The translations under genes and the position numbers were made by a program. Shown piece by piece: positions 3,101-59,067 of a DNA stretch of 64,000 nucleotides. The DNA is from Podarcis cretensis (Eukaryota): positions 38,626,001 through 38,690,000 of the forward strand of contig OX638156.1 of NCBI GenBank assembly GCA_951804945.1, read 5' to 3'. Below the pieces are notes generated by a model. It searched no databases, was not told where the DNA came from, and saw only the letters and a program-made list of their open reading frames with translations. Position 1 is the stretch's first letter, and every line of letters begins with the position of its first letter.

Positions 3101-6100
3101 CTTAAACAGCAAGCCAGCCCCTCCACACACGTGATGCCACAGTATCTCATTCACTTTTTGACAACTTGTTTAGACTTGTCCTTCAATTAAACACCTTCTG
3201 TCTGGATGTGGGGACTTGTCCATCTAAGCTGCAGGGAAGGTTAAAAAAATGAGGGGAGGGGCCGCATGGGAGGCCTGCTCTGGGCCTGTGTGGGAGGTGA
3301 CCAAGCATAGCATAAAGAGAACTTTACTTTTACTAATGCTGGAAAGAGCACCTTCCTTCCCAGATTTGAGCAGTTGGGGTTGTTCATCTGGAACAAATTT
3401 GTACACTTGTTCTTGGCAGCTATCCCGGGAATGCAGGGCAGAAGTACAACGAATTCTACACCAGCGTGCCTTGGATGTAAAACTGGATCCAGCTCTCCAG
3501 GACAAGTGCATGATAGATCTGGGGAAGTGGTGCAGTGAGAAAACAGAGACTGGACAGGTATCTCAAAAATTTAAACCAATAATCTCATGTTGAAATTGTT
3601 GTATAAATTAGAAAGCAAAACACATTCACTTTAAATGCCCTGGTTCTGCTATTTCTTCATAAACATTTTTGAATTTTACTAAATTTTAATGATCAAAAGT
3701 TTCTGTATTGCGTTTTGTGCTTTGATTTAGCTTAATTAGTGAAGGGAAGGCACTAAACCCATGTGTGCATCAGGAGAAAGCAAAGCATTGTTTGTCCCAA
3801 TTTATCCAACCTAGAGCAACCTGGAGTGGTGACTTGCTGATCCCAGGGGTTATGTTGCATTGCAGTGTCTCTAAACACCACTTTTAAAGTCCATAGCAGA
3901 AGTGTGGTGTTGGTTGGGGTGAAACATTCAAATCAAAGTTTATTAAACGGTCACAGACCAGATTAACTCGTACAGCTAGTCAGCAAAAGATAACACCAGA
4001 AGAACAAAGGACAATTTCAATACAGATTAGGTCATAACAACAATTTAAAATTAGACAGCATAAATAAAATTAAATATTTGCCTTCACCTGCATATTGACA
4101 TTGGAAAGCTCTTGTTTCCTGCGCCTAATAGCAGCTACACAGAATTTGGCAACATTGATCGTAATTTCAGGGACCTTATCTTCTACCAAGGCTCTCATAC
4201 ATAGGAGTTCTGGTTTATTTTTAAGCTTTTGTAGAACTGGGGCAATAAAGGTCAGACGTAAGTCCTCGTAATAACTACAGTGCAGCAATACATGCAGACT
4301 TGTTTCCACTTCCGATGAGCCACATGGGCAAACACGTGACTCATATGGTTTGCCCTCATATCTGCCTAACAACAGGGCAGAGGGCAGAACGTTGAATCTG
4401 GCCAGGGTAAAGGAGTGTCTGTACTTAGGTATTTGTAAATCAGCCAGATAATTTGCGGGTGAGAACCCTCTCCCAAAGTCTCTAATTGTGGCATGTTTAT
4501 CCATTTTGCCCATATGACATTGCAGCTCTATGTCCCTAATGCGTTGGAGCACTTGACTTCTGGCACTCTCATATCCTGCCGCTATTAAGATCTGCGGGGA
4601 GAATCCCAAGCTTCTTATCTTTTCAAACAGGGAAGCTTTCCAGGTAGAATCCTGTACTGGATAAGTACAGGAACTATAGATCAGCCAACCTACCTTCGCT
4701 ACCATTAGACTGGTTTGAGTTAAAACGCAGTTATAAAGCTTTGATTAACAAGAAAAAGCTCCAGGCACAAAGGAAGGAATGGCAGTGCCTAGTGGAGGCC
4801 TCCCAAAAGAAAGATTCTGCCACGTTTTGGAAAACAATTGCAAAAAGCTGGAGAGACTCCCCGATTGAAATCGAATACTCTATACCCGCTGGAGCATGGG
4901 AGGCCTATTTCCACTCATTATATTCATCAAATCAACTGGCCCCAGTTCTGCTTCCTGCTTCAAGTGAATTTGGCAAGGAATGGCCCCCTGTAACCACAGA
5001 AGAAATTACTGGCCTTATTCAATCTCTTAAATCAGGGAAAGCCCCGGGTGCTGACAATATCCCACCAGAAATTCTTAAGGCAAATGTTGAATGGTGGGCC
5101 CCTGTGCTAGCCGCCTTGTTCACTAGTATAAATCAAGCGGCTATTATCCCCGAGGACTGGGGTTTAGCCATCATCATTCCAATATTTAAGAAAGGAAACA
5201 GAACTGAGCCAGCTAACTATAGACCAATCAGTCTATTAAGCGTTATTAGCAAACTGTACGCTGCTCATTTATGTGATAAATTGGTGGAGTGGATGGAAAG
5301 AGAGCATATTCTATCAGAAGCTCAAGCTGGTTTTAGAGCAAAGCGTTCAACTATAGACCAGGCCCTTGTCCTTCAACACCTGGCAGACAAATACTCTAGA
5401 AAAGGGGGGTCTTTATATGCAGCTTTTGTCGATTTTAAATCGGCTTTTGATCTAATACCAAGGGACAGACTCTGGGAAAAGCTTGGCGCTACAAACATAG
5501 ATAAACGCTTATTACGCCTTATCCGTGGTCTATACGAAAACACCAGGGTGAGGGTAAGATGCGATCGGTCAGGCCATCTAACTAAAGAAATTCAAACGCA
5601 CTATGGGGTTAAACAAGGATGTGTCCTCGCGCCAACGCTATTTAATTTTTATATCAACTCTCTAGCAGTAAATATGGCGAAAGAAAATGCCCACCCTCCC
5701 AAATTGGCAGGTGTGCCCCTCCCGGTGCTTCTGTATGCGGACGACGCAGTCCTACTCTCCTTTTCCTGTGTTGGCTTGAGGAAGCTTTTGAGATCACTTG
5801 CTGACTATTGTCAAGCGGAACAACTATCAATAAATTACAGCAAATCTAAAATTATGGTGTTCTCAAAAAAAAGAAGGAAACACAAATGGAGAATTAATGG
5901 TCAACCTATTGACCAGGTAGCAACTTTCAAATACCTTGGGGTGAAACGAAAGATGTCCCAGAGACATAGCAAGGTGCATTTGGGTGGCTTTCAAGGGATT
6001 AATGAGATGAACCCATTTGTTCTGTGTTAAGATTCTTTGTGTCCCCTTTAGGAACTTGAATGTCTCCAGGACCATCTGGATGACTTGGCGGCTGAATGCA

Positions 6101-6326
6101 GAGACATTGTTGGAAACCTTACAGAGCTGGAGTCTGAAGTAAGTAAGCTTTGTCTGGAAGGGAAAGCTCCAGTATTGTAGTTGTTAGACTTGCACCATGT
6201 GAATAGCATGCTGATTTGTGGGTTGCCCTCCCAAGTAACTTCAAAAGGGTGCCATTTTCATGTATTTGAGTCATCGAAGAAAGAAGGTAAAGTATCAGAT
6301 CTTAATTGGTTGTCCAGATAAAGTAA

Positions 6327-6377
<51 letters not shown>

Positions 6378-8929
6378 TCAGCTGTATGTGTAAAAGTTGT
6401 GCCTTTCTATGGCAGGTATCATTTCCTTAAAATGGCTGTGTTTTGGTCAACTCTAGTTAGCTTTTATTTGGGGCAGCAAACTTTAAGGCAGCCTTCCCCA
6501 CCCTGCCCCCCCCCCCAGATGCTTTGGGCTTCACCTCTCATCACCCTCAGCCAGCACAGCTGGAAAAGCTGCTTTAAGCAATATTTTTTGCAACCTGTTC
6601 CTGCTCTCAATGACTTCTTACAGTAGCTGTTCTTGTCAACAGAAGTCTTCCTAGCTTGTCTCTAGGGATGCTCACATCCCAGGAGACTTTCGCACTCTGA
6701 TGTACAAACATAACATGAGCAACAGTGTGAACTGTCAGAAAAACTGGGTGTGGCCTTGGGTGGACTTATTGCTTTCTCTCTCCCTCTTGTAGGATATTCA
6801 GATAGAAGCCTTGATGATGCGAGCATGTGAGCCAATTATCCAGACCTTCTGCCATGTAAGTAACTCTTACTCATACTTGTTCTAATTTGGATAAGGATTG
6901 AGTGTGGAGTTCCTCCATTAGTATCAGTTGAGGGGAGGAAGACCATAGCCATGTGCATGCCTTGTAGTTCCCCCTTCATGTTAAGCATACCTTACTGGAA
7001 TGTCCATAATTCTCAAGGGCACAACCAGCCTTCTTGCATCCCCAGTTCCCTGCTCAGAACTTAGCCTTAATTACAGTGCTGGTTTCGACATCCAAAAGTT
7101 ATAGCAAGCAGGTGCAAGACTGCATGTGTGCTGTGATTCCATTGGTGCACAGAATGGGACAGTGGTAATTCAGTTTTCTGGCCTTTTTCTTCTTCCATTT
7201 TCTAAAAGCAAATATCTGGTTTGCTGAAATATCTGAATATAAAGGGTGGGTGAAACAATTTCCAGTAGTCATGTGCAGGACTTTTCATTGTTAGTTTATT
7301 GATGCTCATCGTGCACAAAACCAGAATAAATTATACAGAGTAGGAGCGAGTATGTAGAATTCAGCTATTGTTGCATAGTCTTTGTATATCTCTGGCATAC
7401 CAGACGTAGTTAAATTGCAAAATGTGTTTATGGCATTTAATAGATTGTGTTGCATTTTTGGGTCCAGTGGGGGCATGTGCAGCTGTAAAGCAACTTGAGA
7501 GCTCTGGGGCTAACAGGCCCTGACTAGTCATTTTAACAATCAGGTTTCAAATGTAAGCCAGAGAGGTGCAATTACCTTCTCCAGCTTTAAATCATGGGTC
7601 CCGTTGCTTCCTCAGCTGAGGTACAGAGACTTCCAGGAAGGGAGTTAGTTCCCGACAGGTTGTCATTAGTCTGTCTGTCCCATCCCCCCCCCCCCCAATA
7701 TCCCATTCAGGAAGTGGCAGACAACCAGATTGACTCAGGAGACCTCATGGAGTGCCTCATTCAGAACAAACACCAGAAGGAGATGAATGAAAAGTGTGCA
7801 ATTGGAGTCACACACTTCCAGCTGGTGAGTGTGGCTGGTTCTCCAGCATCCCCTAGTTTGACTGAGTCTGGGAGCCAGACATCCATTATCCCTTTTCACT
7901 CTGGAAGGCCAAAGGCATTTTCCTGTCTGCTGGAATTTGAACTGTTATGGCATAGTCCCCTTTTCAGTGCTGCCTTGGCTTATTTGCCACAAATAAGCTT
8001 CCGGATGTTGACTACTTTGTGCCTTTAGCCACGTTCCTTCCAAATCTGCCATTCTCATTTTGTAATTGGAGGCAGGCAGTGCATGTGGTTGGACCCATAG
8101 TGATTTGGATGGGCATTGCATTCTACCTTAGCCTCACTAGAAGGGATAACTTGAACTGAAGCTCAAAGGTGGCAAGGGAAGAAGCAGGGCAGAGAGATGC
8201 CATTGACTAGGGCTGCAGTAGCAGATATTCTTTGAAAGACTTCCTGTGCCTGACCTTGAGAGGAGCCTGTTTGCTTTTCTTTCTTTAGGTTCAGATGAAA
8301 GATTTCAGATTCTCCTACAAATTTAAAATGGCCTGCAAAGAGGATGTCCTGAAGCTGTGCCCCAACATCAAGAAAAAGTATGTGTGTGTGTGTCAGAAAT
8401 TTGGCCTCATGGCTTTTGAATGCTAGAGAAAAATTTGTCTCTTAATCAGAAACTGGTAACTGATACCCAAGAGTTTTACACTAAGATAGCCTGGTGTTAT
8501 AACACTTCTGTCCTCTTCAGGGTGGATGTGGTGATCTGCCTGAGCACCATTGTACGCAACGACACGCTGAGAGATGCAAAGGAGCACCAGGTCTCCATGA
8601 AGTGCCGCAAGCAGCTACGTGTTGAGGAGCTGGAAATGGTAAAAGTTGCCCTCTTGTTACTCTGAGGCTTTGCAAAGGCTTCTGTGGAGGGTTGCATCAG
8701 CTTGCGCTACCCTGAAAATATTTGGCTGCCCCTCAGTGCTAGTTTCCTTCTCTCTAATTACCATTTCTTATATTCTAAATTGGGCTTATAGCAGGCTTCT
8801 TTGCAAACGTTGGCTTTTCCTGGCACCTTGCCACAAGAAGGCAGTTTTTGCTGAGCCAAAGCCAGCCCCAGCTGTTGGGGTTTAAGAGTCTTGTTCAACC
8901 AGCTCCCTTGGACCAATAGAACTGCAAGC

Positions 8930-8980
<51 letters not shown>

Positions 8981-11900
8981 GTGTGTGTGTGTGCGTGTGT
9001 TTTAAGGGATTTTTTCCAGAGCTCTCCTGGGCAGCCAAACTGAAGACTGCATTGCACAAGTGTGTTATGTTTTGATTCATAGCTTTGGCCTCAAATAGCT
9101 GAAAGACTGCCTCTTCCCAGTTGACCTTCTAGGGCAGCTTTTCTCAACCCAGTATCTTCAGATGTTCTTGAACTACAATTCTCATCATCCCTGACCACTG
9201 GCCATGCTGGCTAGGAGTGATGGGAGTTGTAGTCCAACAAAATCTAGGGACCCAAGGTTGAGAAAAGCTGTTCAAGGGTGTTCAGACCTGTAGAGGGTAG
9301 TTCCGTCACCCTCAGAAGTTGAGGGAATGGCAGCCTGGGAGAGGGTTTTCTCTGTGACAGCCCCTACATTGCGGAAGTCCCTCCCTACAGAAGTATCTCT
9401 AGCATCTTCATCGCATAGCTGAAGACATATCTCTTTCATCCTGGCCTTTGTTTTGTGGGGCCTCTTTTGCTGAATTTAAAGCGTTCTGTTCCACTTGGAA
9501 AGGTTTTGCTTGTTTTATAATTATAACAGCTTTATAAATTTATATTATTGTTGTAATCCACTGTGCAGCATGAGGGTGAAGAAGAATGAGTAAAGAGATC
9601 CTATTAAATAAATATATAACCTCAAGAGTGCTGATGGTTGCCTGCAGAAAGCTTCCTAGTTAGAAGATAAACACTTGGTTCTCTCATGGGCTTTTTACTT
9701 TTTGTAATTGGTTTTGTTTGCTTTGGATGTTCAAGCTTTCCACCTTCCCTTTGAGTCTGAATCCTTTTTCAATGTGATTCATCTTGCAGACTGAGGATAT
9801 CCGCCTGGAACCAGACCTTCATGAGGCCTGCAAATCGGACATCAGGGACTACTGCCAGAACGTCCCCTATGGCAATGCTCAGGTGATCTGCCTTTTCAGT
9901 GCGCGCTCTCTCTCTTTCTCTCTCTTTCGATGTTTCTGCCTAGCAAGAAAGGCTTTGACCGGAATACATTCTGCATCAAAGCCCATTTCAGTCTGCTTTG
10001 ATTTACAAACCTTTTGCTTGTACTCTGACTCACAGCCAAGTCCACTGGATGGGCTGATCAGGTTCCTAAGCACCACTGGCAAGTGTTTCTCCAGCACGAC
10101 AGAGCACTTCTCCATGGGCTCAATTTTCCTCTAGCTCTTCCTTAGTCAGTGGCTACAAAATATCCCACCCTTCCAAAGGAGGCCAGTTTACATTGAAACT
10201 ACCAGGTTGACTGTTGAAGAAAGAGCTTTTACTCGCTGAGTTGAACTTTCAGCCACTAAACCTTCCCCCCCCCCCAGGCTAAGTGAACACAGTGACTTCC
10301 ATCTTATGAGTTGGCTTTTAATATAATTTATTTTGGTACTTCTAAACCCTCCTCAATTTAGCATCCTCCTTAGAATACTTCACCCAAAATGTGCTGTGGG
10401 CAAGACCTCCTCAGTGCCACTATTGCTCCTGTTTTAGATGAGGTGCTGCTTAAAATAATGCAGGGGTTTGGCTATTTTGTTCCATAGCCTTTGCTTTGTT
10501 ATTTTAAAGCCATTGAGTCATTTCCTTACTCCCAGATTAGCAATGCTGCCATCTAGCGTCCAGTTACCCTTGAGATGTTCTATTTATTTAACTGCAGATT
10601 ATTGAGTGTCTTAAGGAAAACAAGAAGCAACTCAGCACTCGCTGCCATCAGAAAGTCTTCAAACTCCAGGAGACGGAGATGATGGATCCAGAACTGGATT
10701 ATACTCTCATGCGTGTTTGCAAGCAAATGATCAAGGTAAGGGTGGCTGGTTGATGAGGAGAGGTTTAGAATTAGGCCACATCATGTTGCTTTCAGTGTAA
10801 CATTTTCTCTCCATGCAAGAGTACATGTAGCTGACATTGCCTTGAAATAGGAATCCACATGGATTTTTGTAGGAAGATTTTTGGACGTTTAAACTGGGTT
10901 TCTGCCTGCTGCTCCTCATGAAGACTTATCAGTTTTGTTGATTTCCATATTTATTTGTCTGCAAAGGCAAAATCTTTCATTGGGAATTGGCCCATCTTGT
11001 ACACAAACCCAGAGGCCATTTCTGCATGGCATGGGATGATTTGTTAATATTCACAATATTCTATGGTGCAAACCAAATCTGACCATTTTTAGTGTACAAG
11101 CTTGACTCTTCATTCTGGAAAGAGTCAAACGGTTCTAATCTTAAAACATCTCCTGACCTCAAGTATGTATTTTTAAATATCTAGCTATGAATATGCAGTT
11201 GATACTCAACCATATTCTAATCTTCTACCAGATACTCAAACATATCTGGTGAAAGATCAGAGAAGTAAAACTGAAATGGCAAAGTGTCAAACCCTGGTTG
11301 AGGGGCAAGCTTTTTCTCTCTCCTCTGCTGTAACTTCTGTAGAACTTCAGGCTTTCTCAGAACTTTAGGCAGGTGCATGCCCTAAAGGCCTGATACTAAA
11401 GGAGATACAGCAAAAAGGCTCTTGGAAGTGCAGCGGCTCTTTGATTTCTCTTCAAAGTACTCAGACCAGCAAGAGGATCATATAGAATTATAGCTGAGCG
11501 AAGCCCCACTTTTCCCATCTTCCTGTCCTGTTCTTGGTTCAGTGTGTTTCTAAACTTTCTCTGCAAAAATACATTGATTCAGAGGTGCCGTTCCCACCAC
11601 CTCTCCTGACATTAATGGGCATGGGTATTAACACAACACCTTTTAAGAATTCATTCCATGCCAAGCAACCTCTGGGTTGGCCTGGAAGTGCAGTGAGGCC
11701 TGACTTGTGCCTCTTCAGCACTTTGCATTCAGGCAACAAGAGTCCTGGCTTAAGATGGGAAGTGCTGTTGCTCTCCCCTTGCTTACTTGTTGGTGCTTTC
11801 TCTCCCTCTGTCAGAGATTCTGTCCAGAAGCAGATGCAAAGAACATGCTGCAATGTTTGAAACAGAACAAGAACAGCGAAATGATGGATCCCAAATGCAA

Positions 11901-23910: not shown

Positions 23911-25299
23911 TTACATTTACCATCTTGCATTTTTAGCCTCCCTTTCCACCAAGGAGCTCAAGGCAGCAGACATGGTTGCTCCTTCCCCTATTTTATCTTC
24001 ATAATAACTATATGAGGTAGGTGAGACTGGGATATAGTGGCTGACCCAGGGTGGGGATCTGGCCCTACCCACCACTGACATGTGGCCCTCAAAAGGTTGC
24101 CCAGAAGATGGTGTAGTTCAGGCTGAAAAAGGTTCCCCACTTCTTCTGTAGGTGCAAACAAATCTTACTTTGGAGCAAAGTTCATGATGCCTGTCAGCCA
24201 CCACACTTCTTGGTCTGCCTTATGTCAGTTTTCATGAACCAGCCCTGACCCAGATGGGAATTCCCTGTTTCCCAAAGTGATGGTATCTCTAAGAATGATG
24301 CCACAAGCCACTGTGTCTCACTGATGCAGTGTGGGGTAGGCATACTTGGCTTTGTTGAAATATTACATGATGAGGGGAAGATACATTTGGATTGGATCTG
24401 TATCAACAGTAGGCTCAAGTGTTGGGGAAGGGGGAGGGGACACTGGAACAGTGGTAACCCAATAAAAGCAGAGTGCTTCAAAACTGGGATGCCTGTCTGT
24501 GGCAAAGAGCTAGCCCAGGATGGAGAAGATGTATTTTTCTTCTTTGTTTTTTGTGCAGTTGGGAAAATATAGGGCTTAGCTGTTCAATGGTGAGTTCCTA
24601 AACTGGAGGAAGAGGATCTTGTTCTATGTGAAGTTGGGGCTTTATGAAAATACATTCCCTCCAACTTAATCATGCAAAGCTTCCCAATTTGGCTTTTTGG
24701 TTTTTAACCTAGTGCACCACTAAAAATTAATCTTCAACTTTCTTCATATGAAAACTGCTGAGCTTCTCTTGGTCTTGCACCTAAGGACTCTCTGTGTTTC
24801 ACCTAAAAAGATACAACGGCGTACAGATGGATGCATTTTTTAAAATGGGGATGGAGCAGTGGTCAACCATTGCATGCTTCTTTGTCCCAGCAGTAGGAGG
24901 TGCAGCCTAAAACTTGCTTCAGCGCACAATAGACTGGAGTCTCCTTTGTTCTCCACCCCCCCCCGACATTTCATCTGAATACTGTCCCAAGATGCAGGCA
25001 ACTTTAGGGACGGGGGGGGGGGGCTTTCTCCGCTCTGGAGGAACCAGGAGCCTCTTATCCAGCTGAGGATGGCGACCCTGCTGTGCTTTACAGATTGCCC
25101 GCAACTTTACGCCATTTTTGGAGCCTACGAGTTTACAAAAACGGATGGCAACATTACAGCGGACAACAATCACATTACTTACTTTTTTAAAAAATGTGAA
25201 CAGTCAGTGACAACCGAAGTCGAGCTTTCGTTCATTTATTACATTAACATATTTCCTTTCCTGCAAGTTGCTAGGGGGCACGGTGCCGGCACTCCTCCC

Positions 25300-28110: not shown

Positions 28111-28337
28111 ATGTTCCTCCGGCTCTTGTCTGATGTCCGGTGGCAAAGAGCTAGCCCAGGATGGAGAAGCATGACCAGCTCCCGGCACAGTAGCACAACT
28201 GGAGCAGAACCTCACCTGACCCCTTTGCCATCACATGCACAGGTGGTTATTTGTGGGGGTGGAATCATGGGCACATCAGTGGCATATCACCTCTCCAAAC
28301 TCGGGTGGAAGGACATCGTCTTACTGGAGCAGGGCAG
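28111..28337 (+). CDS. PDPR: PDPR first coding exon (exon starts 28050)
   Basis: MFLRLLSDVRWQR...VVICGGGIMG...LLEQGR; GGCAG|gtaagt. Confidence 0.95.
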
Positions 28338-31300
28338 GTAAGTAGTTTTTTTCCCCCTTTGCAAAAGAAAATAGGTGTTTGAAGCAGCAAGTAATGCTGT
28401 GTGGTGGAACTGGGAAGGTCTTGTAGCAAAAGTAAAGTGTACACACACCTGTTAGCTAACTGTAAGATTCAAGCTGAGAGTTTATCTACATCTTCAGAAA
28501 AAGCATTTGTATTTTCTGGAACTGTACTGCTTCAGGTTAGGACCAATATTCAGATGTTCTCCTCACTTAAAAAACAAAACAGGAACAGAACCTCTCCTTG
28601 CATGTAGAAACCCAGCATGGTGGGGAGATGACTGGACTCAGCTAGAACCCTTCTCTGACATTCTTCTTTTCCACAGGTAGCGGTCCTTGTTCAGTAATAT
28701 CTTCCCTACATCTGATAGCTTTCTTATGCAGCATCTTATCTTTGGAATTTGTTTCAAATTGATTTGTCTCTGTCTTTCATGGGGATGAGGAATTGGTGTT
28801 CCTTCAGTTGTTGTTGGACTCCAACTTGCATCAGTCCTAGGAAGCATGGCCAATAGTTAGGGTGATGGGAGCTGCAGTCCCAGCAACATCTGGAGGGTTA
28901 AAACCTACCTTTTCTGTTTTCCTTGCTTCTGTTTGACTCAGCATCTCATACCTTGTTTCGTTTCCTTTACTTGTGCTTCTCCCTGCAATGGGGGTATCTT
29001 TAAAGACTGTCTGGCTGGTTGAAAATACAGCTGCTGGGCTACTAACTGGGACCAAAAGTTGGGAATGTTTTCAGCTGGTGGCTTGGAGCTTTCTTTAAAA
29101 GCCTGTCGTGGCTTGGGACCTGTGTACCTGAGACAGCACCAGTTCTCACATAAACCTACCCATGTGTTGGGATGGGGCGGGGGGAGGCTACAGGAATGCT
29201 GACAGTCTGGGGGTTTTGTTCCTGAGCAGTTGGAATGCTTATAAAATTAAATACAGTTGCACCTGCTAATACTGGTATAACAGGCTTCATTGCTACCAGC
29301 ACAGAGTCAAAGTTTCTGTAGAATTTCTGCATGCTTATTAAAATCATAGGGTGTAGACTCATGGTTATCAAGCTGTCTTCTTACACTTGTAATCAGGGTA
29401 GTAAAAATATTCTAAAGGAGTGAATTCCCCCCCATTATTTCAGTGCATACTTAAGATTGCCTTTGAAGCTCTGATTTCTGCTGATTTGGTGTATGGATTC
29501 CTGGCATGGTTGTTATTCCAGATTAATTAACTTTTAGTACATTGGTGTGATCTCACCTGTGTGACAACAGGGTACACAAGGGTGATCGGAATGAAATGCT
29601 TGTCATAAGAACATAAAAAGAGCCTGCTTGATCAGGCCAATGACCCATCTAGTCCAGCATCCTGTTTTCACAGTGGCGATCCAGATGCCATTGAGATGCC
29701 TGCAAGCAGGGCTGGAGCATAACAGTACTCTCCTCTCTGGTGGTTTCCAGCAACTGGTATTCAGGAGCATTACTGTCCCCGACCATGGAGGCAGAGCATA
29801 GCCATCATGACTAGTAGCCTTCAATAACCCTTTCTTCTATGAATGTCCCATGTCTTTAAAGTATCATCAGTAGTGTTAGCTGCTAGTTTGGCATTAGAGA
29901 TCAGCATTGTGTATGTTGTCTGAGTTAGTCTTTAAGACTGAAAGAAGCCCTGCCAGAAACCATCCGGTTCCTTTACGTTTCCTTTGCCAAGGAATGCTGT
30001 CCTGACCCTGTGTGCTGGTATTGCCCTGTCAGTGGCATGCAAGAGCAAATGTTTGCCCTTCCTTTGGCTCTGGTGGCAGAAATTGCCTCCTTGCACTTGG
30101 GCTCTCCTTGTGAAATCTGGAATGGAAGGCAAAGCGTGCCTCTTGTCAACACACAGCTAAAAATATCCCCTGCCATATCTTAGTGGCACACTTGGGCTTT
30201 GCATGCTCAGCACCCAAATTGGGTTTCACAAACTCCATCCTTTGTAAAACCAACACACATTTGCTGACTGTGCCTCACTTCTTCAGAGGAGCGCATTTTG
30301 ATTTTGTTGTGTGCTGGGAAGAGCATGGAGGAAAGCAAGGAAAATGAGATTGGGATCTACTTAATGACACTTTATTTCACTTCATACAAACTTAGCACTT
30401 CATATGGAATTTAAAAAGAAGCTCCTGTTTTATGACTGACCATCTAAGTAAAGATGAGGTGTTCCTGGCAATCTTGAAACTGTGTGCTGTGAGAGTATGT
30501 GATTGTTTTTTGATACTTCTAATTGTTTTTTAAACGTCTTACATACATTTTTAAAATTGTATTGTATTGTTTTATCACTGATGTATTTGCCACACTGGGC
30601 CCCTTTTGGAGGAAGGGTGGGATGTAAAAATAATAACTAAATAAAGAGGATGGGGCTTGAGGATCCATCCAAATGCAGAGCTTGTAAAGCATGGTGCCTT
30701 CCTAAAAGTGAATAATTGTGACAGGTTTTCCAATAGAAACCAGCCCAAAGAAACAGAGCCTTTCAGTTGCCTTTCTTCTAGCCCCTGGCAGTGATTTCAT
30801 CCAGTCCAGGTCCCCAAAAGAAGAGGAGTAGAAATATCAGGCTCATAGTCGCTGGTATGGTTATGTAATCTATCTGGTTCCAGGCAGGAAGTAGCTTCTA
30901 CTGGCCTCGGTGGTCTGTGATCCCAGTGTACAGGCCATGCCACCTTTGTAACACTTGCTGGTTGCAAAGTGGGGAGGTCTCCTTGGGGGGAAATATTTTT
31001 CCTTTCTCCAGGATACTGCCCATAATCCCCACTAAGTGCTACAAGTTTCCTGACTGTGGGCTCAAGAAACTGCCTTCTGGGTGTACCCACAGAGTCTTAG
31101 GAAGTACAGGCAAAGGTGCAAAAGGCCCCACTCTTTAATTGGTGGAAAGCCTTGCCTGCTCCTCCTCTTCCCTGCCTGATTCCATAGGAAATGACTCCCT
31201 GGGCCAACCACACTTAGCTGGTGAGCCAATTGGCCTGACTCTGGGTATGGCAGCTCCATACTTTCTTAGGGAGCCCTCTGCCACTGACTCATGACCTCTC

Positions 31301-43300: not shown

Positions 43301-46300
43301 CTTCTAATTACACCCTGGTGATCACAAACTGGCTGCCCACAAACAAATTGTAAGAGACGCTTTTGTACACTGCAGAAACAGGGAGTGGTTTGGAATGCCC
43401 CGAGTCGTTCTGTCCAGCATGTAAAGCTTGGGAATTTATTTTTTCAAGTTTTATTTTTTTTAAGTATTCCTCTCCTCTCTCCAGCATATACACGAACCTT
43501 CTGTCCCCAGACAGAGAATCTTGTGTCCAATCCTTGTGAATGGAGAATGTTATCGTGGAAATGGGCCTGACCTCTGAACCCCACCCTCAAAAATGAATCT
43601 CCAAATGCAGGGGTAGCTAACCGTTTTTTTTAGCATGAGGGTCACATTTGCCATTTGAGGGGTTGCATGCACACATACAGCCCCCACTTCTGGACTGATC
43701 CATGCTAATCAGCTGTAGGGGGCAGTCATCACCTCCTTTCTGCTCATCAAATGATCAATCTGATTGTGGGCAGTGATGATTAAACGAGGGGGGACGGAAC
43801 GAGAACCGGGGGGACGGAACGAGAACCATTTAAACTACCTTCAGCTCCTTGCAGAAAAAGGTGGGATATAAATGCAACAAAATAAATATAAGTCACCCAG
43901 GAACCAGAAGCCAGGCACTTGAGGAGTCTTTTCTTGCAAGCTCCCAGCTGCTTGTGCTCATTGCAGAAGTGTTTTTTTTTAAAGAGTGTATAATGTTTAT
44001 TCTACCGTGTCATCTCTGCTTGCTTCTCTGGTGCTTAAGCTTCTTGATTGTCTCCTTCCTCTCAGTGGAGAGAGCGAACGACTGCTCCCTCTCTTCTTGT
44101 CCAGGGCTGCCCATGTGCTTTTGCCATCTTTCATTTTCTTCCTTTGCTTCCTGTTTCCTACAGGAGATGAGCGTGGGCTACGCCAACGGCATCCGTGTCA
44201 TGAGCATGACGCACACCGGAGAACCGGGATTCATGCTCTACATCCCCATTGAGGTGAGAGGTGCTTTGTTGTCTTCAAAACTTTGATTTGCAGGACTGAG
44301 GAGAACCTCTTCTCCCTTTTTCCACGGGATGGTATATAAAGATCCAGAGTAAAAGACTTGGCTTAGAAGTACAAGATAAAAATGTCCATTCTGTCTTCTC
44401 AAGCTCACCAGTTTGTCCTACTGTGTGTCTCAAAAAGGAGATCTACCTGTTGGGGCCTAACTTTCCTCGCTTTCAGACCACATTGTGAGCAGGAAAGAAT
44501 CCAGTCAAAATAGGCCCATATGAGTTGCACTTTGCTAGAACGGGCAAAAGGTCCAACTAAACCAAGCCACCTAAATATACTCAGCTTATAGGTAGGAAAT
44601 GTTTGCCTTCAGCATCAAACAGTGTCAGAGTACTCTGCCTCTTAATTAGAAAGGCTCCATTCAGTTTGTCAAATTGTTGTTTTTATCCATTGATAGACAA
44701 ATTAACAGAGAGTAGCTAATAGCGAATAATCTGTGAAGTGTGCCTTGCACTATCAGACCAAGGCAACTGTGAGCTGGCTGGGTCTGCTGGAAGATCTAAA
44801 TCAAAGCATCTGGAAGGCACCAGGTTGGGGGAGGCATTGCTACCACTTATTTTGTAAGGAAGAAACCCTTTTTTAAAAAATCCCCAAAAGGGGCATAACT
44901 TGGCATTAAATTCTGCCTGCAAAAGCCACTACAGGCAGCTTTTGGAATTGGCCACAGGGAAAATGCAATCAGATTCTTACACTAAACAACTACCTAGAGC
45001 AGGCATAGGCAAACTCTGGCCCGCCAGATGTTTTGAGACCACAATTTCCATCATCCCTGACCACTGGTCCTCTTTGCTAGGAATGATGGGAATTGTAGTT
45101 CCAAAACATCTGCAGGGCTGGAGTTTGCCTATGCCTGACCTAGAGTGCTGAGCAGTCTCTTTCTCCTAGGACATAGTTACAACAAGCCGCTTTTTGTAAG
45201 GCAACATGGCTTCAGTTTGTAGTTTGGTGACAGCAAAATGTGGAAGCTGAAGCTGCTGGGCAAAGTTTGGATGAGCAAACAAATCATGGTTTGATAAGCC
45301 ATAGTTTAATAAACCACGGTCAAGCGTTATGTGCAAACCAGGCTATTCAATGCAGTTTGCTGGGCTTGGTTGGTGGGATGTTGTCATCCGCAGCTTTCTG
45401 CAGCTGTCCAAGGACTGCTGCCGTTTTTCACTCTCTAGAGTTGCAGATGCCAAATGTTGCATTCAAATGCCTCTGTACTATTTTTCCAAACCCTCCCCTT
45501 GCAGTATGCTTTGCACGTGTACAACGAGGTGATGAGTGTGGGGCAGAAGTACGGGATCCGGAATTCTGGCTACTACGCCCTCCGCAGCTTGCGCATTGAG
45601 AAGTTCTTTGCCTTCTGGGGCCAAGATCTGGATGCTTTCACCACGCCGCTGGAATGTGGGCGCGAGTTCCGGGTTAAACTGGAGAAGGTGTGAAAGAGAG
45701 CTGGGCCATGGGGTGTGTGTGTTTGTGTGTGGCACAGAAAAGGCAAGCTGCCTTGAAACGAGTGCAACACAACCTCCCTGCAGTGTGGGCATCATGTTTG
45801 CCTTGGGGCTGGGGGAAGTGGATTCAGACCCCATCCTAGCCATCAGTTTCCTGGGTGGCACAGGGCAAGTCACTAATTTGTGGGCTTCAGCTTCTCTTCT
45901 GTTAAGCTGCAACAGCAACGTAAGAGGTGGAAGGTACCCCAAGGGTCATCTAGTCCAAGCCCGTGCAATGCAGGAATCTCTTGGTCCCTTGTAGATAAGT
46001 TCCCCATAGAATATAAAGCAGGAGCTGCCCTTTTGTCCAGCCCTGACTGATGCCCCCCCCCCCCCGCTCTCTCTCTGCAGGGCACTGACTTCATAGGGCG
46101 GGAGGCGCTGATGCAGCAGAAGCAGGAAGGGGTCTACAAGCGCTTCATCATGTTCGTCCTTGAAGACCACGATACAGATTTGGACCTGTGGCCCTGGTGG
46201 GGGGAGCCCATCTACCGGAATGGCCAGTACGCCGGCAAGACCACCAGCAGTGCCTATAGCTACACACTGGAGCGGCACGTCTGCCTGGGTTTTGTCCTGA

Positions 46301-49762: not shown

Positions 49763-51531
49763 GGGGATTACTGGCTAACTAGCGTGTGGGACAATGAGAA
49801 GTGGAGTTTAGGGGGCCTCCACTTTGACTCTTGCCTGGGCTATAACTTCACCAGACCTTTAGCAAGCCAGTCCCTCTTGACCTCAGCCCAGAGGGACTTA
49901 ATATCCCTTTAGTAACATTGGTGCCCATCCTTACACCCTCACATGGGCCACCCTTTGTTTTAACTTTTGCTCCAGCCACACATGATGTAGCAAGGGGTTG
50001 CCAAACCACTCGAGGAATCTGCACTTCACAGCAGCTTTGTCTGCATGTGACTCAGATTGCATGTGTGGCATCCGGAACTGATGTTTAAAGTAGGTGCTCC
50101 TTCAGTGAACTCTATATTGACGCTTGTAACTGAAAACAAGAGCACAAGAAGAGCCTACTGGATGAGGCCAGTGGCTCATCTTGCCCAGCACCCTGTTTTC
50201 ACAATGACCAACCAGATGCCTGTGGGAAAGCTGCAAGCAGGATCCAAGCACAAGAGCCCTCTCACCTCCTGTGGTTTCCAGCAACTGGTACTTGGAAGCA
50301 TTTCAGTTCATGAAACATCTTCAGGTCACAGCCATTTGCGGTGGGTGTGTGAGGGCAGAGAGACTTCAGAGGGTTGGCACTGGGTGTGCCTTGTAAACCA
50401 GTGGTGTCCCAATACATCTGCAGTGCACAATGCAAGCCACTTGGAGGGCCATTTAATGGTTATTTAAGAAAGGCAATACTCTCATTCTGTGAACCTCTCT
50501 TTCCCCTACAGGGACAGGACTGGAGAAGAGGGGGATTTGGTCTTTGTTTAGAAATTGGGCAGCAGGGGCTCTAGGCATCCTGCCCCTTCCCCCCAACCAT
50601 CCTGGGGTTAATGCTGACCTTTGCTTTTGTGTAATTTTTAGATTTCCAACCTGATTTCTTAAAAACCAGGTGACTTACTAGTCAAACAAGCAAAAAAACT
50701 TCCAAAAGCTTCCATCAACAGGTAACTCCCAACATGGGACCATGCCTATTTATCTGTCCCTTGGAAACCCCCCCACCCACGGTACCCTCCTTGAATGTTT
50801 TTGCCTGGTCACTGTCCCCCTCCCAACTCTTCTGGGCTTAGTCTGGCTTGTACTTACTTGTGTTTTAAAACGTAAGAAAGAGACAACCGCAAAGAACTAG
50901 AAATGCTTTGTAATGCTGGAAGGCACAGGCTAAGAACTACATCTTGCAAAGCACCCAGGTCCGTCTCTCGAGTCCAGGCATCTCTTGCCTACAGTTCTTC
51001 CCTAGCATTGCAAAGGATGCTTCTGTGCTGGTGCCATTCTTCAGACTTTGGTTATTTGCCTTTTGATTTCTAGGGACAGAGCCTCTTCCGCGACTCTTTT
51101 TGGTAAAACTGGAGGAACCCCCTCTGTTTTTTCCATAACTGGCTCCTGCAATGGTGGGAAGGCGTTCTTGTTGCGGCCATGGGGCACCCCGTTAATATTG
51201 GTGGGTTTGATCCCTTTGCCCAGTCAGGACTGAACAACAGGGCTGCACTTTCAAGCACAGATGCCCAGCTTCTGCCAGCTGTATCTGGGAACTGTGTTGT
51301 GCCTTCCTTGCTCTGTCCCCCCAAGATGGGGGCACTGCCCATATAGTGACAGAGGTGGGAGAGGGGACCAGTCCAGCATGGAGTCTTCCTCCAAGGGGCA
51401 CAGAGGGGAGGATACACCCAGCAGGGTGGCTTTTCGGCCCCTTTTGCAGCAGACTAGTGCATTTTGGAGGAGGCCAACTTGCATCCTCCACAGCTGCTGA
51501 TGCTCTTCTATGGGGCTGGTGAGGATGGGGC

Positions 51532-56300: not shown

Positions 56301-59067
56301 TCTTTCCATGTAAACACCAATTCCTTGTTGGTTCCTTCACTTGGAAAGCCATGTTATGGTTACAACAAAATTGCAGGCCCAGTTGGGAAAATTGGCCAGA
56401 GATCAACCTGTAGGTCTATCAGCAGGAGTGGGGGCTGTTAGGAGGTCCCCATTTTTATGATACCCGGCAACCTCAAGCTATTCCTTCTACCAGCCAGACA
56501 CACTCACCTTTGCAGACAGGCTGCTGTCCGCTCCACTTGTGGTTCTCCTGACACACCCGTGTCTCAGCACCCACCAGGAGGAAACCAGCATCACAGACAA
56601 AATGCACCTCGTGACCCACGGACGTCCTCTTTCCCAGCCTCCGGCCATTCAAGGGTGCTGGCAGGGGGGTGCAGCTCTCTGTTGGGGGATCAGAAAAGAC
56701 GGGAAAGTGAGTCTCCCCATGGCTCCTTTCCCCAGGCTCTTTTCCTATCCTAGCCTGTGGCTGTTGCTTTCTTGTATACATTAAGTAGCAAAATACTGCT
56801 TAAATGAAATAGTGTTATAGCCAAGGCTGGGGCTCTCATGAGGCAAACCAGGCAGCTGCCCAGGGCACAGACCTCAGAGGAGCTCAGTACTGACCTCTGA
56901 GGGGCACAGTTTTATACAGATCTGTTTTTATTATATCTTATACATTTCTGATAATATTTTGCTTTTATTTTATATTGTGAAGAGTTTTATCGTTTCTGAA
57001 GTAAGTCATACATTAGAATTGTTTTTCATGTAGATATGAAATAGACCACAGTTGAGTGGAGGTCACACACACAGTGAAAAGTGAGATTTTGATGTGCCTG
57101 AAATTGAAACTTTTAAGAGACTTAACATCACAATTCACAATAAATTCCAACTTTAGTATTTGAAAAAGATCATCAAAGATCGTTGCATTACTTATTCTTT
57201 CAATTAAAAATAAATTCAGCAGTTTCAAGTTTTGTGCTTTTCATTTTTTTCTTCAAAACATCTGTTTTTGAAAACTGAAATTGGCAGGGGGGAGGGGGTT
57301 GTGTGCAAGTAGTTAGCTTTGCCCAGGGTGCAAAATAGTCTGGCATCAGCACTGGGTGTGGCATTACAACATTATCTTTATATGTTTTTAGCTTTTTGCT
57401 TTTTATCTGGGTTGCTTTACTTTGTGTAAGCTGAGTCTGGTCCAGGATGGGATATAAATAAATATAAAAATAATAGTAATAGATGAGTTTTTAAAAACCC
57501 TGAGTTGTATGCAACTTAATAATAATAATAATTTTGAAATTTATATCCCACCCATCCTGATAGGTTTCCCCAGCCACTCTGGGCCTCTTACAACATATAT
57601 AAAAACACAACAAAGTATCAACTTGATTCTACTTACAGTGCACCCACTGAAGTTAATGAACCCAAATTAATCATGTCTATTAAATTCAATGGGTCTACTA
57701 TGAGTAGAGCTACCACTGGAAACAATTCCCCCTTTCCAGTCCTCATTTTTAAAGAGTTGATTAGATGCAGCGAAAAGCCATTCCCTAGACATTTAAAAAA
57801 CAAAACAAAACAGCCTCAGGGTTGCCCTGTGTCCTGCACACATCATGTGCACACACAGACACCTTTCTGCTTCTGCACTCTGTGCTTCTCTCTCCTTTTA
57901 CCATTGTGCTTGGCTGCCTGCTGGTGGAGACTGCCTTGCAAAACGGCCAGCTGCTTCTTGAAGTTGCGCAGGCTCTGCAGCTGGGCAGCCTCATGCGAAG
58001 ACAGCAGCTTCTGCATCTGCCGGATGGCACTGGAAACTTGCTGGTCACTTAGGCAGCCCTGCAGGGGGTGAGAAGGTACAAAGTAGCTTTGGCAGGGAAG
58101 TGGAAGGAACAGCCCACAGGTATCACCCACAAAGGCTCGTGGCAAATTGTAACTGATGCTGCGCGCACACCCACAAACACCCACCCACCACCGCTGCAGA
58201 GGCTCCATCCCTTGTTCATTTTGGCTGCCCTTTTCTGAACCCTTTTCACTTCCACAATGTCCTTTTGGAGGTGAGTATAGAATGTTTAGATCTGTGGTGG
58301 CCAAACTTGCCCCTCCAGCTGTTTTGGGACTACAATTCCCATCATTCCTGACCATTGGTCCTGTTAACTAGGGATGATGGGAGTTGTAGTCCAAAAACAG
58401 CTAGAGGGGCAAGTTTGGCCACCACAGGTCTAGATGGTGCCTCCAGGCCCACAATGCACACTATAGGCAAGATCAGGCCTCTGCATCCAAGGCATTCAAT
58501 TTGGCCCAGAAAAACACTTCTATGACATTCCTGTTCTAAGTCCCCACACTGCCCATTGCTGAAGTTTCATACACCAGCCTGTCTAAGTTGAGGGTGGTGA
58601 GAAAATGTTCTGCTTACAAGCTTAAGCCATGCTGGATGGGGGTGATGGGAATTAGAGCCCCAAACATCTGGTGGGCACCAGGCTGGGAAATCAGGGAGGG
58701 ATTTCACCCACCCATCCATCTACCCATCCATTACATTTATATCCCACCTTTATATCCCTCCAGGAAGCTTGAGGTAGCCTACATACTTCTCTTATCCATT
58801 TTGTCATCACAACAAGTGGTTGCCTGGCTAGACAAGAGCTTTAGCTTTGAACTCCACTCTTTTGTTTATCAGGGTCCACTCCTATGGACCAAGCACACCT
58901 GGGCTCTGCACCCAAACCTACAGGCACCATCCCCTGCCTCCTACTGGTTCCATACCACCAGCCCTCCCAGGTTCAGGATTCAGCATCATTTATCTTACCT
59001 GGGAGTTGCTATGAGGCAACTGTAGGATACCCAGGACCACCACAGCCATTATCTGGGGCAGCAGCAT
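51532..59067 (-). CDS. Fibulin-7-like secreted ECM protein (FBLN7 paralogue), complete, 427 aa
   Basis: complement(join(51532..51892,53873..54011,54149..54286,55682..55804,56036..56161,56508..56678,57902..58058,58999..59067)) = 1284 nt, all GT-AG and in phase. Signal peptide, coiled coil (SAIRQMQKLL), sushi, EGF/cbEGF repeats and fibulin C-terminal domain ending FVSQYEF*. Confidence 0.93.
52264..52716 (-). mobile_element. L2-like LINE 3' end with (ATT)n tail, nested in a CR1 3' end
   Basis: TTTTAA duplicated at 52258-52263 and 52717-52722; the flanks rejoin to a continuous CR1 tail ...ccctggaggcttttaagcagaggttggatggccatctgtcaggg... Confidence 0.75.
53115..53265 (-). mobile_element. tRNA-Lys(CTT)-derived SINE with CR1-derived tail
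   Basis: Minus strand: TAGCTCAGTCGGCAGAGCACGAGACGCTTAATCTCAGAGTCATGGG..., then ...GATGACCCTCGTGGTCCCTTCCAACTCTATAGTTCTACAATTCTA. Confidence 0.8.
53873..54011 (-). CDS. Fibulin-7-like cbEGF exon (DVDECAENQHNC...)
   Basis: gcaag|AT ... GCCAT|gtaagt. Confidence 0.93.
54149..54286 (-). CDS. Fibulin-7-like cbEGF exon (DIDECQLFQ...NSCN)
   Basis: ccag|AT ... AACG|gtgagt. Confidence 0.93.
55295..55430 (+). mobile_element. tRNA-derived SINE fragment (Squam2-like)
   Basis: tagctcactggcagagcatctgc...cccaggttcaattt...ctgagctagatggacc; related pieces at ~32870-32990 (+), ~60500-60650 (-), ~63335-63550 (+). Confidence 0.55.
55682..55804 (-). CDS. Fibulin-7-like exon (FSRQPRCA...CSCDPGFQ...CQ)
   Basis: acag|AT ... 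CAAG|gtaagg. Confidence 0.9.
56036..56161 (-). CDS. Fibulin-7-like EGF exon (INECASNPCANGGTC...)
   Basis: tcag|GC ... TCCT|gtaagt. Confidence 0.93.
56508..56678 (-). CDS. Fibulin-7-like sushi/CCP exon
   Basis: acag|AG AGC TGC ... WSGQQPVCK G|gtgagt. Confidence 0.93.
57902..58058 (-). CDS. Fibulin-7-like coiled-coil exon (GCLSDQQVSSAIRQMQKLL...)
   Basis: gcag|GGC ... AATG|gtaaaa. Confidence 0.92.
58292..58427. mobile_element. Palindromic hAT-type MITE
   Basis: 23-bp TIR CTGTGGTGGCCAAACTTGCCCCT/AGGGGCAAGTTTGGCCACCACAG; TSD GTTTAGAT/GTCTAGAT. Confidence 0.88.
58999..59067 (-). CDS. Fibulin-7-like signal-peptide exon (MLLPQIMAVVVLGILQLPHSNSQ); exon probably starts at 59122
   Basis: AAG-ATG context, hydrophobic core, phase-0 donor CAG|gtaaga; upstream polypyrimidine acceptor at 59123-59124. 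Confidence 0.82.

Follow-up and report, generated by a model that had tools for sequence, protein, structure and literature searches.

Introduction

Twin priming, in which both ends of the cut target DNA copy one RNA, usually accounts for human L1 insertions with an inverted 5' part. Such twin-primed insertions were reportedly described by Ostertag and Kazazian in 2001, and Ichiyanagi and Okada are said to have studied the junctions of L1, L2, CR1 and RTE elements in 2008, a work that may bear on inverted non-L1 copies. The inverted piece of such L1 copies ends against the second target-site duplication (TSD) without a tail (PMC2912911, PMC12016303), and its median length in the germline is 751 bp against 571 bp for the forward piece (PMC12016303). 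About 70% of inverted L1 copies have 2-5 nt of microhomology and 4.6% have none (PMC2912911). The median gap of L1 inversions in tumours is 14.5 bp (bioRxiv 10.1101/2024.08.27.596794), and in a set of 287 inversions the ends were at most 20 bp apart in 46% and more than 20 bp apart in 54% (PMC12016303). According to PMC4245944, 5' inversion was found for L1 in human cells only, except for one insert of Nimb-2_DR in chicken DT40 cells; this near-restriction to human L1 and human cells is put down there to both the element and the host, inverted inserts have TSDs of 10-20 bp, and those of Nimb-2_DR peak near 12 bp. Two other systems are relevant to the present case: cDNA snap-back is a known class of junction for R2 proteins (PMC11371274), and RTEX elements, whose members have a real ORF1, in some with an esterase (PMC3905857), are known in Anolis, for example RTEX-2 Acar (PMC4476161).

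Here we describe an insertion in a stretch of 64,000 nucleotides of Podarcis cretensis DNA, which was analysed at its full length and is called the window. We interpret it as a very young copy of a non-L1 LINE of lizards, likely of the RTEX clade, which is truncated and inverted in its 5' part and for which twin priming is the most likely origin, a reading to which we assign a probability of about 0.84.

Results

The insertion (Table 1) lies in an intron that starts at 3558 and that would measure about 470 nt without the insert. The PF00839 repeat gene that hosts it is one which we take to be GLG1-type. A Pfam search of the 29 residues of the downstream exon gave no match, and this exon was therefore assigned from its splice signals and frame. 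As noted in a preliminary description of this DNA, the insertion ends about 100 bp before the acceptor, whose AG is found 102 nt behind the right TSD. On the strand of the host gene, the element has brought in AATAAA at 4063, 4244, and 5829. The next intron carries a perfect (CTTT)13 microsatellite (6327-6379).

Table 1. Features of the insertion and of the flanking host exons (window coordinates)
Feature	Position	Strand	Remarks
Upstream host exon	3420..3557	+	Cys-rich repeat PF00839, E 6e-12
Left TSD copy	3914..3925	.	At the element 3' end; putative first-cDNA primer (plus strand)
Element 3' end	3926..3944	-	AATAAA (3944-3939), C, (TTTGA)2, then 2 nt (3926-3927)
3' UTR	3945..4069	-	
Non-inverted ORF2 C-terminal part	4070..4650	-	C-x-C-x9-H-x4-C knuckle; stop-free up to the natural end
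Extra bases at the inversion junction	4651..4656	-	TACAGG on minus; fold-back copy of 4666-4671
Inverted ORF2 piece	4657..5936	+	Starts just before RT, ends at the K-Y-L codons; 5936 common to the TSD
Right TSD copy	5936..5947	.	Its minus strand is the putative second primer
Downstream host exon	6052..6139	+	Acceptor AG 6050-6051; from splice signals and frame

The insert between the two TSD copies is 2.0 kb long. The perfect 12-bp TSD that had been proposed is the 12-mer TTGGGGTGAAAC, which occurs only twice in the 64-kb window. Both copies are flush with the ends of the element and their length falls in the 10-20 bp range. The probability that an exact 12-mer match would fall by chance within 15 nt of both element ends is about 6e-5. 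Pairs of identical non-simple 12-mers at most 10 kb apart number 121, so that the weight of the TSD rests on its placement and not on the repeat itself. The preliminary description had also read the element as two stop-free halves on opposite strands with an AATAAA and a TTTGA-like tail of its own, and all of this is borne out: the ORF list has a stop-free RT frame on the plus strand (4648-6030), which matches RVT_1 in Pfam (E 1e-35), and a stop-free C-terminal frame on the minus strand (4744-4070), and the AATAAA at 3944 of the minus strand is followed by two TTTGA units. The limits given for the halves (~4660 and ~4663) had to be revised, as the minus half extends to 4650 and the plus half starts at 4657. 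The two nucleotides at 3926-3927 are not matched by the two contigs of run X7 that extend to the element 3' end, and a loose end before 3928 shows more TTTGA-like units in another copy of the family.

These breakpoints were obtained by aligning contigs of 4 of 24 sequencing runs on 3562-6049, with 23 of 82 loose ends listed, and they define a forward piece of 4650-3926 on the minus strand and an inverted piece of 4657-5936 on the plus strand. In 4/4 runs, the family sequence departs from that of the window at three points, just after 4650, just before 4657, and just after 5936, and by eye the translated loose ends yield the residues that adjoin the breakpoints in P0001, a Podarcis muralis UniRef protein that is the best match among the longer proteins. 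The inverted piece meets the second TSD to the base with its RNA-downstream end, without a tail. The arrangement is that of twin priming, as had been suggested, with head-to-head pieces of which the upstream one is inverted, an intact TSD, and an internal deletion. The copy is immobile on its own because its ORF2 is short of 401 nt and has no endonuclease domain.

Both halves come from one element, as the preliminary description had held. Residues 235-664 of P0001 match the plus half at 96% and residues 797-885 the minus half at 97%, and of the 14 best relatives tested, 13 match both halves in opposite frames. The alignment to the family gives the expected order of an RT segment, a gap, and the C-terminal segment. 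The gap amounts to ~401 nt of family sequence when counted on P0001, and the near-full-length relative P0002 gives the same offset of 133 residues. No second copy of the family was found in the 64-kb window, a metagenome scan for the family returned two distant loci only, and searches of the Atlas returned only clusters without names.

A contig of run X5 has no differences over 1,280 nt from the RT half (4657-5936), in agreement with the recent insertion that had been proposed. By the rule of three, 0/1,280 corresponds to a divergence below ~0.25%, where the contig may represent the majority of many copies, and sequence identity of this order indicates that the copy is very young. The 3' half differs from the family contigs at several letters, for instance at 4133 with full depth in three runs, and is thus not identical to every variant. 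Run X5 carries an organism label other than that of the best-matching runs, and its identity could reflect either a very close species or a family that was recently shared. The depth climbs about tenfold toward the 3' end in runs X1 and X3; it is not a copy number, and the rise fits 5' truncation.

Several loose ends have other explanations. The contigs at 4438 (X1, X3, X7) agree with the 3' part and beyond it run into what is by eye an apparent sister family; possibly they represent a recombinant or a related subfamily. The loose ends at 4438, 4419, 4658, and 5483 resemble diverged sister families by eye and were dropped as truncation or inversion junctions, and a truncation hotspot at the hairpin described below was dropped for the same reason. 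A contig of run X3 leaves ORF2 3'-ward at 4426 and continues in foreign DNA for at least 255 nt; as a weak lead, it is a candidate for the outer junction of a second inverted copy, or else for a 3'-deleted or interrupted copy.

Elsewhere in the window, we have found a perfect direct repeat of 30 bp at 24499-24528 and 28140-28169, 3.6 kb apart in unrelated surroundings, and the sequence between its two copies showed no coding mobile element. There are also two short diverged repeat families, one at 9156-9260, 45010-45117, and 58311-58417 and another at 29607-29771 and 50138-50302. The copies are 76-82% alike in both families, which are probably old SINE or transposon fragments.

With regard to the clade, sequence scores indicate that the family is not L1, as the preliminary description had argued from the TTTGA tail. 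With human L1 as the sole L1 reference, comparison with human L1 ORF2p gives 94.8 bits for the RT of the window and 76.6 bits for P0002, and comparison with R2 proteins gives 55-72 and 55-63 bits, respectively; the scores with L1 are thus just above those with R2 and far below those of the 120 relatives listed (212-937 bits), many of which are non-vertebrate where a source is named. The plus-strand primer ends in GAAAC, so there is no T-rich endonuclease site, and the tail consists of TTTGA units without poly(A). Certain terminal Pfam families mark the L1 and L2 clades, and in the I group (I, Nimb, Ingi, R1, and others) an RNase H behind the RT is typical, if not universal. A Pfam scan of seven relatives detected the RT in 7/7 and an APE-type endonuclease in six, with no match to RNase H in 7/7 and no L1- or L2-type terminal domain in any of the seven. 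UniRef calls the lizard relatives P0005, P0007, P0009, P0018, and P0022 'ribonuclease H', a label that looks automatic since P0005, the one scanned, has no RNase H match in Pfam.

The ORF2 of RTEX is characterized by an APE endonuclease, an RT, and a C-terminal CCHC-type knuckle. Relatives of this family carry all three, with the C-terminal knuckle pattern found in 101 of the 120 listed, although the CCHC knuckle alone is not diagnostic of RTEX because L1 has a CCHC motif too. The RT also contains an RTE-group-like motif, G-V-K-Q-G-C-V-L-A-P, which presumably links the family to the RTE group. A FastTree of 119 RT sequences (the 120 listed relatives minus two with short alignments, plus the window), which holds no labelled clades, places the window in a group of 32 tips with a support of 0.985, and the named members of this group are Podarcis, Anolis, and Rhineura, all of them squamates. 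We consider it probable that the family is RTEX, an assignment drawn from sequence motifs and the occurrence of RTEX in Anolis.

The 5' junction is the point at which our analysis departs from the preliminary description, which had proposed a microhomology of 7 nt (TTGGGGT at the K-Y-L-G codons) between target and element. Behind 5936 the family reads GGGAATAAC in 4/4 runs, translating to Y-L-G-I-T, with the codons TAC CTG GGA ATA (Y-L-G-I) where the window has CTT GGG GT. The family thus lacks TTGGGGT, and the reading of K-Y-L-G into the TSD is a coincidence at the codon level. The strict overlap with the TSD is one nucleotide, the T at 5936, which is available at 537 of the 1,978 positions of the element. 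If one primer base is allowed to bulge, four pairs can form in a 1+3 pattern that is present at 8/1,978 positions, whereas a broader rule of pairing with one defect is satisfied at 36/1,978; as the bulged pairing was chosen post hoc, it is suggestive at most. A match of 10/12 to the TSD exists at 5603-5614, in the G-V-K-Q-G codons of the RT, and was treated as chance because priming happened elsewhere.

At the inversion junction, the extra bases, on which the preliminary description is silent, complete a perfect hairpin of 9 bp (4650-4658 / 4664-4672) with a loop of 5 nt. The element holds a single hairpin of this size, out of eight in the 64-kb window, and the chance of the fold-back is 0.001-0.004 assuming six free bases. 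TCCTG is already present in the family just upstream of 4657, so perhaps only two bases are new, in which case this chance is too small a figure. On that reading, the junction would consist of family letters at 4650-4654 plus an insert of 2 nt that perfected an existing quasi-palindrome. On the minus strand, which is antisense to the RNA here, the extra bases come after the loop in the 3' direction, so the strand that acquired them would have been extended from the right-hand end. Under either reading of the extra bases, this growing strand would be the minus strand, which in twin priming is the second cDNA. A fold-back insert on the minus strand is what twin priming predicts, and it supports this mechanism as an independent sign.

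Discussion

Two pieces of a common family, with their breakpoints, a gap, a TSD, and extra bases, are present at this locus, and twin priming could have generated them as follows. The endonuclease would cut the intron with a stagger of 12 nt, and the plus-strand end would prime on the (TTTGA)n tail, from which ~725 nt would be copied, to 4650. The minus overhang would then pair weakly in the RNA ~400 nt upstream of the stop of the first cDNA, and the second cDNA would copy 1,280 nt, to 4657. There it could fold back at the imperfect inverted repeat and add a few self-templated bases. Finally, the ends of the cDNAs would be joined over the one shared base and the gaps filled, leaving the TSD intact. 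Some observations speak against twin priming: the strict microhomology is just 1 nt and the better 10/12 site at 5603 was passed over, and the gap of 401 nt is large compared with the L1 median of 14.5 bp, although 54% of the 287 inversions have ends further apart than 20 bp (PMC12016303).

The size of this gap could also be explained if both cut ends had been primed on different RNA molecules of the same family. Inverted L1 insertions from two transcripts do exist (PMC11702581), and the RT half is identical to a majority contig while the 3' half has several other letters, but far more copies cover the 3' end, where a larger number of variants would be expected in any case. Moreover, matches to the family proteins show that the two pieces are ordered, do not overlap, and are close to each other within one RNA, and for these reasons we consider two templates very unlikely. 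We give even less credit to an ordinary 5'-truncated copy of 2.4 kb that was later rearranged, by inversion and deletion or by the collapse of a snap-back hairpin of the first cDNA. Quasi-palindromes can promote template switches and there is one at the inner junction; however, one breakpoint must then coincide with the TSD edge to the base, and the absence of differences in 1,280 nt means that almost no time has elapsed. In addition, a snap-back of the first cDNA would be expected to leave the loop antisense on the plus strand, where it reads sense. Least probable of all is an assembly or library chimera of repeat copies, since the outer junctions alone show opposite orientations, each anchored in unique intron sequence, have the 12-bp duplication in common, and lie in a window that contains no N, even if fold-back chimeras are a known library artefact and the contigs aligned from the four runs (some records were filtered out) come without flank depth or a joint spanning the junction.

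Twin priming therefore remains our preferred reading, and the locus is a clean example of it in an unusual family and not a new mechanism. The surprise of finding an inversion outside L1 is reduced by the published Nimb-2_DR insert, and the lizard copy fits the model that links TSDs of 10-20 bp to inversion (both PMC4245944). As judged from titles and the beginnings of abstracts in mostly open literature, Repbase Reports aside, we found no report of 5'-inverted RTEX or lizard LINEs, and in PMC6007223, PMC5389967, and PMC2718515 twin priming occurs in the reference lists only. That a reptile carries a natural inverted copy from a distant clade, and a very young one, implies that 5' inversion depends neither on L1 nor on a mammalian host, although one copy alone does not settle the idea about TSD length. 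We regard as rather doubtful a broader proposal in which the active lizard RTEX-like family, with TSDs of ~12 bp, twin-primes at a rate similar to that of L1 (10-30% of long copies), the length of the overhang, rather than L1 or a mammalian host, determines inversion, and the junctions routinely record cDNA snap-back. Because the family is young and abundant, its inversion rate can be counted in existing long-read assemblies of lacertids, which makes the idea about TSD length testable.

Among the known systems, the squamate RTEX elements such as RTEX-2 Acar share with this family a lizard host, relatives with an APE endonuclease, RT, and C-terminal CCHC-type knuckle, and an RTE-group-like motif, features that make this family a presumptive member. 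The fold-back is comparable to the R2 snap-back, where the 3' end of the cDNA primes extra synthesis on itself before joining (PMC11371274), but here it involves 2-7 nt and lies at the inner junction, in a copy of an APE-type LINE that was most likely twin-primed. The lizard copy resembles the twin-primed copies of human L1 in having an inverted 5' piece that adjoins an intact TSD of 10-20 bp, an internal deletion with little microhomology at the inversion point, and an inverted piece that is longer than the forward piece. It differs from them in its non-L1 protein, in its TTTGA tail instead of poly(A), in the lack of a TTTT/AA cut site, in its lizard host, in the single nucleotide of strict microhomology at its 5' junction, and in its gap of ~401 nt. 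Finally, Nimb-2_DR belongs to the I group and is a zebrafish element assayed in cell culture, whereas the copy described here is natural and its family has no RNase H match; nevertheless, both are non-L1 LINEs with TSDs of ~12 bp that have given rise to an inversion.
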